From the NCBI RefSeq assembly GCF_013315695.1, contig NZ_CP054353.1: a stretch of DNA of 64,000 nt, one strand, 5' to 3'. Numbering within the stretch: position 1 is the stretch's first letter; each line of letters starts with the position of its first letter. Shown one piece after another: positions 50,136 through 56,748 of this stretch. A program made the position numbers and the translations under genes. The DNA comes from Escherichia coli (lineage in GTDB: Bacteria > Pseudomonadota > Gammaproteobacteria > Enterobacterales > Enterobacteriaceae). Under the pieces are notes generated by a model, which worked only from the letters and a program-made list of their open reading frames with translations, was not told the origin of the DNA and did no database searches.

Positions 50136-50486
50136 ATCCTCTCTGGTTTAACTTCCCGCCAAAATCAAACACGCACAAAACCGCACAAAAACCTCTATTC
50201 ACGCAGAGTCACGCATTAATAATTCTATTAACAAGAAATATTTGAATCCTGGAAAGCAATACGCAAAATTAATGAAAACAGTGCAACCAATTGTTTAATA
50301 TGAAAATATAATAAATCATGTGATTCATCTCTCAAATATTAACGATCTCCATAGGCAATGCATGTTTCTGCGCATAAATTACAAACATGCAAAAACACGC
50401 ATTAAGATGTAAACAAAATGATGCTGGCTGCATAAAAATCATGCTGGCAGTAAGCCTTAATCAATGAAGAAACGTGGAGAATGAAG

Positions 50487-51296
50487 ATGGATCAAGCAAA
50501 CAAATGGTTGGATCTCTCAGGAAAAGTGGTGATCGTGACCGGGGGCAGTATGGGGTTAGGCGAAAAAATGGTCGAAAACCTCTCTGCAAATGGCGCAAAT
50601 GTCGTTTATGCCGATCTGGCTCCCAACCAGAGCTTTAATGAGATGGAAGGCATTACCTTTATAAAATGTGATGTCACAAAAAAGACCCAGGTTGAAGCTC
50701 TCACACAGACAGTCGTAGAAAAGTTTGGTCATATTGATGGCCTGGTTAATAACGCCGGGGTCAGCCGCCCGCGACTGTTGGTCGATGTATTTAAACAAAA
50801 ACCAGAGTACGAACTTAGTGAAGACGACTTTGATTTTATGGTGGGAGTGAATCAAAAAGCCGTTTACCTGGTATCGCAGGCCGTAGCTCGTCAGATGGTC
50901 GAACAGCAGTCAGGCGTCATTATTAATATGACATCTGAAGCAGGTGTTCAGGGATCGCGTGGACAAAGCTGTTATTCAGCGACAAAAGCCGCCGTCAATG
51001 CATTCACCTTTTCATGGGCAAAAGAACTGGGTCCGTTTAACGTTCGCGTTGTCAGCGTTGAACCAGCTATAAACGTTCCTACTCCTATGAACAGCGAAGC
51101 GAATTTCCGTGCTCTTGCTTATACACGCGGCACAGATCCCTCACATGTTCATAAAGATTACAAAGGAATTATCCCGCTTGGTCGCCCTGGCAAACTCGAA
51201 GAAATCGCTGACTTAATTTCTTTCCTGGTTTCGGATCGTTCTTCCTACATTACCGGTTCCGTGATCAATATCACCGGCGGTAAATCACACCATTAA
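50487..51296 (+). CDS. Short-chain dehydrogenase/reductase (SDR) family oxidoreductase
   Basis: ORF 50481..51296; ATG 50487 after GGAGA. Gly-rich VTGGSMGLG motif, YSATK catalytic motif. Confidence 0.8.
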   Translation: MDQANKWLDLSGKVVIVTGGSMGLGEKMVENLSANGANVVYADLAPNQSFNEMEGITFIKCDVTKKTQVEALTQTVVEKFGHIDGLVNNAGVSRPRLLVDVFKQKPEYELSEDDFDFMVGVNQKAVYLVSQAVARQMVEQQSGVIINMTSEAGVQGSRGQSCYSATKAAVNAFTFSWAKELGPFNVRVVSVEPAINVPTPMNSEANFRALAYTRGTDPSHVHKDYKGIIPLGRPGKLEEIADLISFLVSDRSSYITGSVINITGGKSHH

Positions 51297-51323
51297 TCAA
51301 TAATCACTAAAATGGAGCCGACC

Positions 51324-52790
51324 ATGGGGAACAGTAAAATTGCCAATAGCCCTGCGTTAGCGAAAATAAGAAAGTTTGGTGGAGTAATGAGCGGCATGGT
51401 AATGCCGAATCTGGGTGCCTTTGTAGGATGGGGGTTAATGGCCGCTATCTTCATTCCTAACGGATGGTTTCCTAATGAAAAATTAGGCCAGATGGTCGGC
51501 CCCATCCTGAATTATCTTTTCCCATTACTTATTGGGTATACCGCAGGTTATAACATTCACGGTCAGCGCGGAGGGGTCATCGCTGCTTTCGCAACGATGG
51601 GCGTCATCGTAGGTTCTGAAATAACCATGATAAGCGGCGCGATGGTCATGGGGCCGTTATCGTCCTGGCTATTGAAAAAGTTTGACCAGAAAGTACAGCA
51701 CCGAATTAAACCTGGCTTCGAGATGTTTGTAAATAATTTCAGTCTGGGAATAATAGGACTGCTTTGTGCAATCTTTGCTTATATGACAGTGGGGCCGGTT
51801 ATCCGCGTCCTGATCGTTATTATCACTTCAGGCGTGAACTGGTGTACCAGTCATAATTTACTGCCGTTACTATCAGTATTTATGGCTCCTGCACAGGTGC
51901 TTTTCCTGAATAACGTGGTGAACCACGGTATTCTCGCGCCAATTGGTTTTGCCCAAGTTCCTGAATTGGGTAAATCAATTATGTTCCTTGTGGATACCAA
52001 TAACGGTCCCTTGCTCGGAACATTGATGGCCATCGCCCTGTTTGGTCGTAGTCGTGCGAAGAAAACAGCACCAATGGCGATGTTTATCGCCGGTATTGCA
52101 GGGATTGGTGAAGTCTACTTCCCGTTTGTACTGGCTAATCCGTTGTTAGTCTTCGCAACAATGGGCGGCCTTGCTGTCTCTTTGTTCTTACAGGTGATCA
52201 TGGGCGGCGGTTTGATCGGTGTGGCTTCGCCGGGGAGTTTGATCGCCATCGCCATGATGACGCCTAAAAGTGCGATTATTGCCAACCTGGTATCTATCAG
52301 CGCCGGTTTTGTCGTCTCCTGTACACTTGGCTGGTTAATTCTCAAAATTAGCCCCGGTTCAGAAGATGATGACGAAGAAAATCCGGTCATCGTCGGTGGT
52401 CGTCAGGTGAGATCTGTTAGCGACTTTGTCCCTGGCATCTCAAACGTGACGGCGGCAACCAGTAATAAAACCGTTCAACGCATTTTGGTTGCCTGTGATT
52501 CAGGTATGGGGTCCAGCGCGATGGGGGCATCTGTTTTACGAAAACGGTTAAAAGCTGAAGGGCTCGATTACATAACTGTTGTCAACGATTCCGCAAACAG
52601 AGTAGGTAGAGATTACGATATTGTCATTACGCTTTCCGGACTACTCGAACGCGCAAGACTAAGTTGCGAGAATGAAAATACTGTTTTTATGACGGTGAAA
52701 AACTTTATTAAGTTAAGTGACTATGATGAGGCAGTGTCCTATATAAAAACGCAAGAAAATGTTACTCAACGTGAGGAGGCGACGGCATGA
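51324..52790 (+). CDS. PTS EIICB component, mannitol (MtlA/CmtA-like) family
   Basis: ORF 51312..52790; ATG 51324 after GGAG. N-terminus GMVMPNLGAFVGWGLMAAIFIP resembles MtlA; C-terminal EIIB ILVACDSGMGSSAMG (phospho-Cys). Confidence 0.82.
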   Translation: MGNSKIANSPALAKIRKFGGVMSGMVMPNLGAFVGWGLMAAIFIPNGWFPNEKLGQMVGPILNYLFPLLIGYTAGYNIHGQRGGVIAAFATMGVIVGSEITMISGAMVMGPLSSWLLKKFDQKVQHRIKPGFEMFVNNFSLGIIGLLCAIFAYMTVGPVIRVLIVIITSGVNWCTSHNLLPLLSVFMAPAQVLFLNNVVNHGILAPIGFAQVPELGKSIMFLVDTNNGPLLGTLMAIALFGRSRAKKTAPMAMFIAGIAGIGEVYFPFVLANPLLVFATMGGLAVSLFLQVIMGGGLIGVASPGSLIAIAMMTPKSAIIANLVSISAGFVVSCTLGWLILKISPGSEDDDEENPVIVGGRQVRSVSDFVPGISNVTAATSNKTVQRILVACDSGMGSSAMGASVLRKRLKAEGLDYITVVNDSANRVGRDYDIVITLSGLLERARLSCENENTVFMTVKNFIKLSDYDEAVSYIKTQENVTQREEATA

Positions 52791-53215
52791 CATCCATTTT
52801 CTCACCGAATAACATTATCCTGAACGCAAAAGCAGGAGATAAATACGAGGCTATTACTCTTACTGGTAATATTCTTAAACAAAATGGTTATGTCACTGAA
52901 GAATACATCCAGAGAATGAAACTAAGGGAGGAGATCGTTTCAACCTATCTTGGTAATGGTCTGGCAATTCCCCATGGCACTGATGGTTCAGATTGCGAGA
53001 TTGTTAAATCTGGAATCTCTCTGGTACAGTTTCCCGATGGTATTGATTTTGGCGATGGGAATACTGCCTATATAACCATTGGCATTGCCGGAAAAGAAGG
53101 CGAACACTTGGATCTGTTAAATAAGATCGCCTTAATTTGTATTGACGAAGATAATGTTAAAGCATTGCGTAACGCTAAAACCATTGAACAGGTTTTACAA
53201 GTACTCAACATCTAA
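52787..53215 (+). CDS. PTS EIIA component, mannitol (CmtB/MtlA-IIA-like) family
   Basis: 142 aa; LAIPHGTDGSD phospho-His region; 4-bp overlap with EIICB. Confidence 0.8.
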   Translation: MTSIFSPNNIILNAKAGDKYEAITLTGNILKQNGYVTEEYIQRMKLREEIVSTYLGNGLAIPHGTDGSDCEIVKSGISLVQFPDGIDFGDGNTAYITIGIAGKEGEHLDLLNKIALICIDEDNVKALRNAKTIEQVLQVLNI

Positions 53216-53255
53216 GATATACTCATTATTCTATGAATAAAATGAGTATGTTACG

Positions 53256-53954
53256 ATGAAAGCTGCCAGACAAGACATTATCCTTCAAATACTTGAGAAA
53301 GAGAAAAAGATTGTTGCCAGTAAATTAAGTGAGCGTCTTAAGGTTTCTGAAGACACCATAAGACGCGACTTAAATGAACTGGCTAACCAGGGGTTAATTC
53401 GTCGGGTTCATAGCGGCGCGATTCGTGTGGGGCCTGCCATTACCGACTTTAACGTCAGGCAAGATCTGAATATTAATGAGAAGGTTAAGCTTGCAAAGAA
53501 AGCAGTACATTTAATTAAAGAAAATAGCGTCATTTTAATTGATGGAGGAACAACTAATTACGAATTAGTAAAGCTGATCCCTAAAGATTTAAAGTGTACG
53601 GTTGTCTCCAATAACATACCTATTCTGCATCTTTTAAGTGATTATCAGAATGTAGAGGTCATTGGTCTTGGTGGTCGCCTGTATAAAAACTCTTTAGTGT
53701 TGATTGGCGCAGAGACTATTCGCGAACTTGAGGCAATTCGCCCTGATATTTATTTCATGGGTGTTGCGCATGTTGATAGCGAAGTGGGTGTTACCATTCC
53801 TGGTCTAGATGAGTGCTATACCAAACAAAAAATGGCTCAAGTCTCAAATGAAGTTGCCATCCTCGTAACAGAGGAAAAACTTGAGACGCGTTCTAATTTC
53901 GTCGTGTCCTCACTCAAGGATATTAACTATATATTTACGAGTAAGGACATCTAA
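53256..53954 (+). CDS. DeoR-family transcriptional regulator
   Basis: 232 aa; N-terminal HTH LSERLKVSEDTIRRDLNELANQGLIRRVHSGAI plus DeoR-type sugar-phosphate sensing domain. Confidence 0.8.
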   Translation: MKAARQDIILQILEKEKKIVASKLSERLKVSEDTIRRDLNELANQGLIRRVHSGAIRVGPAITDFNVRQDLNINEKVKLAKKAVHLIKENSVILIDGGTTNYELVKLIPKDLKCTVVSNNIPILHLLSDYQNVEVIGLGGRLYKNSLVLIGAETIRELEAIRPDIYFMGVAHVDSEVGVTIPGLDECYTKQKMAQVSNEVAILVTEEKLETRSNFVVSSLKDINYIFTSKDI

Positions 53955-53971
53955 AAACATGAGGTATTTTA

Positions 53972-55144
53972 ATGAAACGCGTATTAATTATCGGCGCTGG
54001 CCGCCTTGGTAAAGGTTTTGTTGGAGAAACTTTTGATAACGCAGGCTGGAATATTACTTTCCTTGATAAAGATCCACGAGTTATTGATGAATTAAATCGT
54101 CATAATAAATATACCGTTCAGGTATTCCGCACCGATGATATCATCATGCATGAGGTAACCAATTTTCGTGCCTTTGCTACAGATGATAACTACTCCGTAA
54201 TGAATGACTTCCTGGAATCTTCCGTTATTATGTGTCCGCTATATCCGGAAGATTTTGAAGAGTCTGCGCGTTATCTCGGAAAATGCTTTGAACAGCAGTT
54301 TAAAGTTGACCCTGATAAAAAAATGACGCTCATTTGCCTGACCAATAAAAATCATATTATTAAAGACATCGAAGCCTGGTATCGCAATGCCATTCCTTCA
54401 GCGCAGGCGCGAGACTGGTTTGATTCCCATGTCGCCATTCGTGACTCGATCGTCAGACGTTCAACCGATGCCGAAACGCATTACGCAACGCAGATCGATA
54501 GCACCGCTGTCGCCTCCTTATTGATTCAAACCCCGCTGTACAATGACATTAGCGACGTGGAATGGCTGGAGCCACGCGATCATCTGGAAATGCTTAAAGA
54601 CATTAAAGTCTTTACCATCAATGGCCCACACGCCACCACTGCTTATTACGGACACCTGAAAGGTTATAACACCATTCCGGATGCCTCCGCAGACCCGGAA
54701 GTAGCCGCATTAGCCAATGCGGTACACGACGTCACCATCAAGGCGGTGATGACAGAATATCCGCAAATCACCCGTGAAGCCCTTACGGACCTGGAATATT
54801 TGCCGAAAGCCAAGAACGAGCTCCCCGACTCAATCCATCGCGTCGCCTATGATCCCGTGCGCAAATTAGCCTTTAAAGACCGCTTAATGGGCGTGGTGCA
54901 GCTTTGCCTGAAATACAATCTTGATTATTCACCGCTAACCAAAGCCATCGCCTGTGGCCTCGCTTACTATGCCGAAGACGACCGCGCTTCTGTAAATCTG
55001 CAACAGCAGATGCAGAAAAAGGGCTTGCTGACGACAACCGCGCAAATTATCGGTTTGCCGAAAGATCATCCCGTCACGCTAAATGTTGCACAACAATATT
55101 TAGCGTTGGATGCTGAAAATTTAATTCCAGCCATACCGTGTTAA
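53972..55144 (+). CDS. Mannitol dehydrogenase-family polyol-phosphate dehydrogenase (MtlD-like)
   Basis: 390 aa; N-terminal Rossmann VLIIGAGRLGKGFVGETF resembles MtlD. Confidence 0.7.
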   Translation: MKRVLIIGAGRLGKGFVGETFDNAGWNITFLDKDPRVIDELNRHNKYTVQVFRTDDIIMHEVTNFRAFATDDNYSVMNDFLESSVIMCPLYPEDFEESARYLGKCFEQQFKVDPDKKMTLICLTNKNHIIKDIEAWYRNAIPSAQARDWFDSHVAIRDSIVRRSTDAETHYATQIDSTAVASLLIQTPLYNDISDVEWLEPRDHLEMLKDIKVFTINGPHATTAYYGHLKGYNTIPDASADPEVAALANAVHDVTIKAVMTEYPQITREALTDLEYLPKAKNELPDSIHRVAYDPVRKLAFKDRLMGVVQLCLKYNLDYSPLTKAIACGLAYYAEDDRASVNLQQQMQKKGLLTTTAQIIGLPKDHPVTLNVAQQYLALDAENLIPAIPC

Positions 55145-55146
55145 TT

Positions 55147-55434
55147 ATGATGTCTGAATCAACATGCTGTGCGAATTTTATTATTAAAAATGAACATGGT
55201 ATTCATGCCCGACCTGGTGCGTACATTGTGAATCTTTTAAAACCGTTTAACTGTGCGGTGAAAATTGCCAACCTGTCACGCAATGATCATTACGTTAATG
55301 CAAAAAGTCTTATGGCATTAATGTCGCTGGGAATAAAAAACGGGCATGAAGTCAGTGTTATTTTTGATGGTAAAGACGCACAAAGCGCATTACAAAAGCT
55401 GAGCGCTGAAATTGAAAACGGCTTAGGTGAATAG
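55147..55434 (+). CDS. HPr-like phosphocarrier protein (second island-encoded paralogue)
   Basis: ORF from GTG 55138; ATG at 55147/55150. GIHARPGA active-site His, NAKSLMALMSLG Ser-46-like region. Confidence 0.78.
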   Translation: MMSESTCCANFIIKNEHGIHARPGAYIVNLLKPFNCAVKIANLSRNDHYVNAKSLMALMSLGIKNGHEVSVIFDGKDAQSALQKLSAEIENGLGE

Positions 55435-55447
55435 GCCTTATCTGCTG

Positions 55448-55469
55448 GCGCTTATTACTTAATAAGCGC
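55448..55469 (+). promoter_or_regulatory. Perfect 9-bp-stem hairpin between HPr-like and GldA-like genes
   Basis: gcgcttatt-actt-aataagcgc; possible intra-operon attenuator or processing site. Confidence 0.3.
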
Positions 55470-55492
55470 TCTAATATTAAGGATTGATGATT

Positions 55493-56584
55493 ATGATTAC
55501 CACAGCAATATTCCCTGGAAGATATATTCAGGGGGCGGGAGCTATTGAGCAATGTTTAGGTGAGGAGTTATCCCGTTTTGGCAACAAGGCAATGATTGTG
55601 GAAGATCCGGTAGTTAATCAAACCATCGGCGGCAAAATTGCCGACGCGCTAAACGAAGATTTTACTTACGAGCTGGAAATTTTTAATCGCGAATGCTGCG
55701 ATGAAGAAATTGAACGAATCTGCAAATGCACGCAGGCCTGTGGCGCGAAGATGATTGTGGGTATCGGCGGCGGCAAAACGCTGGACACCGCCAAGGCCGT
55801 CGGTGCTACTCTTAATTTGCCGATCATCGTCATCCCTACGCTGGCGTCTACCGATGCGCCATGCAGCTCGCTGGTTGTCATTTACACGGCGCAGGGTCAG
55901 TTCAAACGTTATATGATGATCCCCCATAACCCGTCCCTTGTTTTCATCGACTCGCAGGTGGTAGCCAATGCGCCGGTGCGTTTCCTGCTCTCGGGTATCG
56001 GTGATGCCCTGGCAACCTGGTTTGAAGCCGAAGATTGCCGGATCAAAGGCGCAGGAAATATGACCGGGCGTCCGGGGCCGATGTCTGCCTATGCGCTGGC
56101 GAAATTGTGCTTCGACACCATCCTGGAGTACGGCGAACAGGCGGTAACGGCTTGCCGTATGCATCAGGTTACCCCCGCCCTTGAACATGTTATCGAAGCC
56201 AATACGCTACTTTCCGGGCTGGGCTTTGAGAGCGGCGGGCTTGCTGCCGCGCACGCCATTCATAACGGGCTGACGGTTGTGCCTGAAACGAAAGCGTTCT
56301 GGCATGGCGAAAAAGTGGCCTTTGGCACCCTGGCCATGCTGCTAATGACCGACAGAAAACCGGAGCTGATAGCCCAGGTTTATACGTTTTACCGAAGCGT
56401 GGGGCTGCCAGTGACGCTTGCCGAAATTGGCATCACCGATAGTTCACCAGAGCATCTGATGAAAATTGCCCAGGCCGCCTGCCAGCCGGGCGAAACGATG
56501 CATAACGAACCTTTTGAGATCACGCCAGAAAGCGTCGTCGCGGCTTTAATTGCTGCCGACGCATACGGCAAAAAATACCATTAA
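55493..56584 (+). CDS. Iron-containing (group III) alcohol dehydrogenase, glycerol dehydrogenase GldA-like
   Basis: ORF from TTG 55484; ATG 55493. GIGGGKTLDTAKA, ASTDAPCSSL, GFESGGLAAAHAIHNG motifs match GldA family. Confidence 0.82.
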   Translation: MITTAIFPGRYIQGAGAIEQCLGEELSRFGNKAMIVEDPVVNQTIGGKIADALNEDFTYELEIFNRECCDEEIERICKCTQACGAKMIVGIGGGKTLDTAKAVGATLNLPIIVIPTLASTDAPCSSLVVIYTAQGQFKRYMMIPHNPSLVFIDSQVVANAPVRFLLSGIGDALATWFEAEDCRIKGAGNMTGRPGPMSAYALAKLCFDTILEYGEQAVTACRMHQVTPALEHVIEANTLLSGLGFESGGLAAAHAIHNGLTVVPETKAFWHGEKVAFGTLAMLLMTDRKPELIAQVYTFYRSVGLPVTLAEIGITDSSPEHLMKIAQAACQPGETMHNEPFEITPESVVAALIAADAYGKKYH

Positions 56585-56620
56585 TTATCTCAGATTGTTG
56601 ACAAAGTGCGCTTTGTTCAT

Positions 56621-56719
56621 GCCGGATGCGGCGTGAACGCCTTATCCGGCCTACAAAATCATGCAAATTCAATATATTGCACAAACCACGTAGGCCTGAT
56701 AAGGCGTAGCGCATCAGGC
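56621..56719. repeat. REP/BIME element between convergent island genes
   Basis: gccggatgcggcgtgaacgccttatccggcctaca and gtaggcctgataaggcgtagcgcatcaggc REP units. Confidence 0.8.
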
Positions 56720-56748
56720 AGTTTTTTCGTTTGTCATCAGTCTCTTTT

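Follow-up and report, generated by a model that had tools for sequence, protein, structure and literature searches.

A short palindrome lies between the HPr-like and GldA-like genes of a PTS operon of Escherichia coli, and it raises the question of whether it has a function and, if so, whether it would act in transcription, in the mRNA or as a protein-binding site in the DNA. The locus was analyzed within the window, a 64,000-nucleotide stretch of E. coli DNA to which coordinates refer unless another sequence is named. An earlier note had described, at positions 55448-55469, a perfect 9-bp stem with a 4-nt loop located 13 nt after the HPr-like stop codon and upstream of the GldA-like ribosome-binding site, and had considered an internal attenuator, an RNase-processing or stabilizing element, and a protein-binding dyad. 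The geometry was borne out by the sequence and the coordinates of the window: the palindrome reads GCGCTTATT-ACTT-AATAAGCGC, 13 nt (55435-55447) separate the HPr-like TAG from it, and the Shine-Dalgarno (SD) of the GldA-like gene begins 9 nt past its end. The GldA-like gene begins after 22 nt, and its ATG at 55493 agrees with the PGAP annotation of an identical genome. Read as DNA, the palindrome is a perfect 10+2+10 dyad; read as RNA, it gains the closing pair G55447·U55470 and thus comprises 10 pairs, one G·U and nine Watson-Crick, of which four are G-C. The features of the junction and of the 3' end of the operon are the following:

55147..55434, + strand: HPr-like gene of 95 aa with its stop codon TAG at 55432-55434 (Pfam PTS-HPr, E = 1.6e-25; PGAP: HPr family phosphocarrier protein).

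55435..55446, + strand: stop-to-stem spacer of 12 nt, unconserved (2-4 of 13 aligned columns identical between lineages).

55447..55470, + strand: RNA stem-loop of 10 pairs with the loop ACUU (fold of -11.8 kcal/mol alone; core 10 pairs paired in 5 of 5 aligned sequences).

55457..55460, + strand: tetraloop ACUU, variable across lineages (ACUU, UUCU, UUUA, UUCAU; loop identity 1-2 of 4).

55471..55478, + strand: A+U-rich single-stranded spacer from hairpin to SD in the window sequence, a possible endonuclease entry site.

55479..55483, + strand: SD AAGGA of the GldA-like gene, not occluded by the hairpin (probability of being unpaired 0.5-0.65 in all variants).

55493..56584, + strand: GldA-like gene of the Fe-ADH family, last in the + strand operon (Pfam Fe-ADH; PGAP 'glycerol dehydrogenase').

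56590..56745, no strand assigned: BIME of two inverted REP elements at the 3' end of the operon, after the GldA-like stop (present by sequence match in 5,425 of 5,426 E. coli genomes).

The junction is located inside an 8.6-kb island between dtpB and rsmJ that is present in 16 of 5,426 complete E. coli genomes, as two alleles about 3% apart (the allele B junction is that of loci L002, L022 and L031). The + strand encodes an SDR dehydrogenase, the IICB and IIA components of a mannitol-family PTS, a DeoR-type regulator, an enzyme of the mannitol-dehydrogenase family and the HPr-like and GldA-like proteins, and the - strand encodes an Rpe-like enzyme, a 6-phospho-3-hexuloisomerase-like enzyme and a HAD phosphatase. 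With two polyol-phosphate dehydrogenases and an HPr paralogue among its products, the gene set (50300-58900) suggests the catabolism of some hexitol or ketose; no description of the island was found in a literature search. Using sensitive blastn (E-value limit 10), the hairpin was detected as a single copy in each of the 16 island-bearing genomes and nowhere else in the 5,426. Its sequence is identical in all 16, an identity that is uninformative on conservation with alleles only about 3% apart. Strain GF131 (L003, NZ_CP172134) carries the GldA-like gene, at positions 894-1801, as an annotated pseudogene interrupted by an internal stop, and its hairpin and HPr-like gene are intact. Other GldA paralogues of E. 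coli (H47-H70) are DhaD genes of dha regulons with promoters of their own and are irrelevant to the junction.

The HPr-GldA junction is rare in public data. A genome scan with the GldA protein gave 13 loci, among which only those of Salmonella share the junction, and a metagenome scan with a DNA pattern made of the SD and the first GldA codons gave one locus, which is the E. coli allele B. The junction hairpin was found in four diverged lineages: E. coli, Salmonella enterica (L005 and L033; GldA 84% identical), the Logan contig L021 (GldA 85% identical) and contig L032. The island of L032 is degraded: what adjoins rsmJ is HPr, the hairpin, the leader and no more than the first few codons of GldA. 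Given as 5' arm / loop / 3' arm, the hairpin reads CUGGCGCUUAUU / ACUU / AAUAAGCGCUCU in E. coli, CUGGCGCUUAUU / UUCU / AAUAAGCGUCAA in L021, UUGGCGCUUAUU / UUUA / AAUAAGCGCCAA in L032 and UUGACGCUUAU / UUC / AUGGGCGUCAA in Salmonella, where the innermost U-A is unpaired in the RNAfold structure and the loop becomes UUUCA, of 5 nt.

Conservation of the stem was assessed against its surroundings. At the four-fold degenerate sites of the flanking genes, E. coli differs from L021 at 60% and from Salmonella at 71%, which amounts to saturation, whereas 18, 19 and 14 of the 20 core stem columns are identical between lineages (70-95%). The corresponding values are 4/13, 3/13 and 2/13 in the upstream flank and 1-2 of 4 in the loop. 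Binomial probabilities for the conservation of the stem are 5e-6 and 1.8e-4, and in simulations of neutral drift all 10 pairs survived in at most 1.4e-4 of the trials. The earlier note had named conservation of the dyad among homologous loci as a check, and its absence as a ground for dropping the idea; the dyad proved conserved in all four lineages.

The stem substitutions also bear on the strand that carries the structure. Every one of them retains a standard pair on the mRNA strand: one pair passes from G-C (E. coli, L032) to G·U (L021) and A-U (Salmonella), and three further pairs show a one-sided change to G·U. The core 10 pairs are 100% paired in the five aligned rows, and sliding the partner columns reduces this value to 29-48%. 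A formal covariation test was not significant, 208 of 500 shuffles reaching the observed score with five rows from four independent lineages; covariation alone is therefore no proof, and the weight lies on conservation against the saturated background. The sense strand folds at -12.3 to -16.5 kcal/mol across all variants and the antisense fold is weaker (-9.3 in L021, -7.7 in Salmonella). As G·U pairs hold on the sense RNA only, the structure is strand-specific, which points to selection acting on the mRNA and not on duplex DNA or on an antisense transcript. In addition, the sequence of the 5' arm is more conserved than pairing alone needs, a feature that could reflect sequence-specific recognition. 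Combined, these comparisons show that the hairpin is real and under purifying selection.

The stability of the hairpin is ordinary (about -12 kcal/mol), and by its sequence alone it is mildly beyond chance. Counting perfect hairpins with 9 bp or more in the stem and 3-8 nt in the loop gives seven in the window, compared to 1.7 +/- 1.6 in dinucleotide shuffles, so that one perfect hairpin of this size within 64 kb is unremarkable. The local fold of the hairpin region has a z of -1.9; equal or greater stability is found in about 3% of all 34-nt + strand windows and in 0.24% of those with a G+C content of at most 45%. Because this stability is not unusual, the case for a function rests on conservation.

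In Superficieibacter (L024, L025) the same island occupies the same chromosomal site (uspA ... rsmJ-prlC) and, otherwise identical, lacks the GldA-like gene; HPr is followed there by the terminator ACAGGTTTACC-N8-GGTAAACCTGT with a run of eight T (T8). A homologous hairpin with a T-run, a canonical and bidirectional-looking terminator, is found after GldA in Salmonella and L021, at the place that the BIME occupies in E. coli. Relative to the HPr-terminator arrangement, the hairpin, the leader and GldA thus read as an insertion or deletion module. Since Superficieibacter without GldA has HPr and then the terminator, and the homologue of this terminator stands after GldA in Salmonella and L021, the module would be a block placed upstream of the ancestral terminator. 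The possibility that the junction hairpin is itself a decayed ancestral terminator was rejected, because the sequence of the Superficieibacter terminator is unrelated and its homologue persists after GldA.

Two known systems provide models for a hairpin at such a position. In malE-malF, an intercistronic REP hairpin is protective on the 3' side. In papBA, RNase E cuts just upstream of an intercistronic hairpin, which then stabilizes the downstream cistron. The reading that we favor, and to which we would give an even chance of being right, is that the junction hairpin is a sense-strand intercistronic stem-loop that acts after transcription, as a decay barrier or processing boundary in the mRNA of the PTS operon. 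RNA polymerase would read through the hairpin into the GldA-like cistron; an endonuclease, probably RNase E, would cut the unstructured, A+U-rich RNA downstream and so expose a 3' end; PNPase and RNase II would degrade from 3' to 5' back to the hairpin and stall there; and the transporter-regulator-dehydrogenase-HPr segment would consequently outlast the GldA segment. In a variant resembling papBA, the cut would occur just upstream and the hairpin would protect the 5' end of the GldA mRNA. Protection of the 3' end of the segment ending with HPr appears the more likely of the two forms. We infer the nuclease steps and the direction of the stability difference from the features of the junction.

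This proposal is made because a hairpin inside an operon, the lack of a U-tract and conservation among enterobacteria are the features reported by Dar & Sorek 2018 (PMC5927463) for the protective 3' structures of differentially decaying E. coli operons, which occur without a uridine tract. In that study, 75-91% of shared protective hairpins are conserved in Salmonella and Enterobacter, and the listed energies range from about -10.6 to -30 kcal/mol (PMC5927463). The junction hairpin resembles malE-malF and this class in that it is a stable stem-loop just downstream of a cistron inside an operon, lacks a U-tract, is conserved in orthologous operons of four lineages and has an energy within this range. 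The ptsH-ptsI pair is an example of a protected pair, with a half-life ratio of 2.4 (PMC5927463), and its upstream gene encodes HPr, as at the present junction. Differences are also apparent. The hairpin is single-copy and not a REP element, unlike that of malE-malF; it is intergenic, whereas most of the structures of the class lie within the downstream coding region (PMC5927463); and its -12 kcal/mol, at the weak end of known protective structures, counts against a decay barrier. Of the options listed in the earlier note, that of an RNase-processing or stabilizing element is therefore the one we favor, on account of stem conservation against saturated sites, pairing on the sense strand only and the features of protective hairpins, with a mechanism that is deduced.

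AU↓AUU at 55474-55478 matches the RNase E motif RN↓WUU (PMC5927463; the arrow marks the cut), a motif that carries little information, and may be read as a candidate site. RNase E-like motifs beside the hairpin showed no consistent conservation between lineages. The papBA comparison is supported by the position of the hairpin a few nucleotides upstream of the downstream SD and by a comparable hairpin before the same gene family in a second operon; it differs in that the 8-12 nt from stop to hairpin are unconserved and would be covered by a terminating ribosome.

If the decay-barrier reading is correct, the junction adds a case in which programmed decay sets the stoichiometry of an operon, here that of a sugar-alcohol PTS island acquired horizontally. 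The hairpin then belongs to a well-known kind of element, as a new and uncatalogued member found in a rare accessory operon, and opens no new question; in practice, clones of the operon should retain it, and annotations should not label it a terminator.

Among the alternatives, a possible but unlikely one is a leader element that belongs to the GldA-like gene, travels with it and tunes its translation or 5' stability; the hairpin might, for instance, shield the SD from structures upstream or halt ribosomes sliding onward past the HPr stop codon. This reading agrees with the absence of the hairpin, leader and GldA as a block from the Superficieibacter island, where HPr is directly followed by the terminator found after GldA in Salmonella and L021. 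It also agrees with two operons in which an HxlA-like gene precedes a GldA-like gene (L007, L018), where a hairpin again stands 9-10 nt before the same AAGGA SD. The 5' arm in E. coli, GCGCTTATTACT, resembles the 3' arm and tail of the Klebsiella-type hairpin, GCTCTTATTACT (local alignment p of about 0.01; MAFFT alignment). On the other side, similarity to L018 is not significant (p = 0.18), the Klebsiella-type hairpins go undetected by a covariance model built on the E. coli type, stand-alone GldA homologues lack such a hairpin, and the SD is about equally accessible in all variants, with no conserved helix that sequesters it. Homology of the two hairpin types, marginal by alignment (p = 0.01 and 0.18) and unseen by the covariance model, was not retained. 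Sequestration of the SD, or translational coupling, through an outer CCUUA-UAAGG helix was likewise rejected: the helix, although predicted in E. coli, lacks conservation, and each variant leaves the SD 50-65% unpaired.

In L007 and L018 the hairpin just before the GldA-like SD is unrelated in sequence and tolerates G·U pairs. It is conserved as UAAGAGCGGA-N5-UCYGCUCUUA (L018, 3946-4000; L007, 5946-6000), 6-7 nt after the upstream stop. The GldA-like gene of these loci is about 71-73% identical to that of the window and is the last of an operon that also contains genes for a glucose-type PTS EIICB, a GPI/cupin protein, a SIS protein and an HxlA-like protein. The presence of this second hairpin may be taken as a point for the papBA-like form or for a general leader role.

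We consider it improbable that the palindrome acts at the DNA level, as a dyad to which a dimeric transcription factor (the DeoR-type regulator of the island or a host factor) binds, with the effect of a roadblock or a second operator. The perfect 10+2+10 symmetry of its DNA form, the conservation of the arms beyond what pairing needs and the presence of a DeoR-family gene in the operon would all suit such a site. However, a different motif, GCRTKTTTNTGCGYAT, is present as inverted pairs 25 nt apart at both promoters of the E. coli island and recurs in the islands of Salmonella and Superficieibacter. Both divergent promoter regions contain GCATGTTTYTGCGYAT without mismatch, at 50360 and at 58762, and each occurrence has its inverted partner at a distance of about 25 nt. 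The motif spans 50360-50400 and 58762-58803 in the window, 1866-1906 and 10199-10214 in L033 and 1230-1245 in L024, and it takes the near-identical form GCGTTTTTCTGCGCAT with the same geometry in Salmonella and Superficieibacter. A search for the hairpin half-site at the island promoters gave none in promoter region P1 and a single one-mismatch match in P2 of E. coli and of Superficieibacter. The other motif, which both promoters share in three genera, is a better candidate than the hairpin and probably serves the DeoR-type regulator of the island as operator. Furthermore, in Salmonella the spacing of the half-sites is shifted by 1 bp and two A-to-G changes make them unequal, changes that do not affect RNA pairing but would matter to a symmetric DNA site. 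The suggestion of a protein-binding dyad made in the earlier note is disfavored by the other motif at both promoters, by this spacing change and by the G·U-type changes that break DNA symmetry.

It is about as doubtful that the palindrome has no function at all. It would then be a chance or hitch-hiking sequence whose arms template-switch (quasi-palindrome) correction keeps complementary, or else a scar left when GldA was joined to the operon by recombination. Its ordinary stability for the genome, the roughly 1.7 perfect 9-bp hairpins expected by chance per 64 kb and its position at the edge of a module that some islands have and others lack are compatible with such an origin. Against it, sequence and structure persist across saturated lineages in which the adjacent intergenic bases are randomized, and template-switch correction would yield perfect Watson-Crick arms, not the G·U pairs of L021 and Salmonella.

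A weak intrinsic terminator, or a pause site that lowers transcription into the GldA-like gene, is more improbable still. The likeness to an intrinsic terminator lies in a stem-loop with four G-C pairs just past a stop codon, the usual place of a terminator, and in a tail that contains some U in E. coli (CUCUAAUAUU). The stem is only weakly G+C-rich (10 pairs, four G-C and one G·U, -11.8 kcal/mol), and no U-run of about 5-8 was found 3' of it in the four lineages: the first 8 nt after the stem contain 3, 1, 1 and 4 T in E. coli, L021, L032 and Salmonella, respectively, compared to 7-8 in the bona fide terminators of the islands. The sequence of the tail is not conserved and a scan for consensus terminators does not report 55448-55469, in agreement with the lack of a T-run described previously. 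The hairpin also lies inside the operon and not at the end of a transcription unit, as a GldA-like gene with an SD follows it, and the true terminator of the island is found elsewhere. No promoter internal to the operon was found for this gene by promoter scan, and without a promoter of its own strong termination at the hairpin would silence a conserved gene. The -10-like hexamers 3' of the hairpin were rejected as a GldA promoter on reading the sequence, because transcripts would start inside or past the SD. The internal attenuator or terminator proposed in the earlier note is thus not supported, since no lineage shows a U-tract and a real operon terminator can be identified elsewhere. The hairpin is not an antitermination element of the RAT or BglG-SacY PTS type either: no terminator overlaps it, no match to an antiterminator family was found in the ten island proteins scanned, and the sole regulator is of the DeoR type.

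Equally hard to credit is a stricter form of the leader reading, a portable sequence-specific leader in which GCKCTTATTACT travels with the GldA-like gene and the hairpin containing it is re-created in each operon context. The partner of GCKCTTATTACT would then be an arm lying upstream in the HxlA-GldA operons, and an inverted duplication lying downstream in the HPr-GldA operons. If true, it would imply strong selection for a structured signal before the GldA SD, perhaps read by an RNA-binding factor.

Membership in a known repeat or RNA family was also assessed. As for REP and BIME, which are palindromic intergenic elements able to stabilize upstream mRNA, a genuine BIME is located 1.1 kb downstream; the hairpin differs from them in its unrelated sequence and in its single copy per island-bearing genome, as judged by blastn in the 5,426 genomes, and a covariance model found no further copy in 295 kb of related loci. 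No match to Rfam 15 was obtained at the junction at the gathering threshold, and at E values up to 10 only a chance match to CRISPR-DR was seen, on the other strand (55370-55412). An RNase III site was dismissed, as a canonical substrate needs a stem longer than 10 bp.

Several further features of the island and its relatives were noted. A match to the Rfam sRNA ES036/CssrF lies at 56655-56697, inside the BIME. The best sigma-70-like match in the island, TTTACA-18-TATACT (10/12), is located at 53194-53223, at the end of the IIA gene and just upstream of the gene for the DeoR-type regulator, and may be an internal promoter for the regulator. In L032 (ENA ERZ907425 contig), positions 469-566 comprise an internally deleted HPr gene, the hairpin in a perfect 12-bp version, the leader of GldA and about five of its codons, fused beside the 3' end of rsmJ; the entire convergent operon is missing. 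Finally, on the - strand of the window a 15-pair hairpin followed by CTTTTTT is present at 57423-57456, between the hexuloisomerase-like and HAD phosphatase genes, a terminator-like element within the convergent operon.
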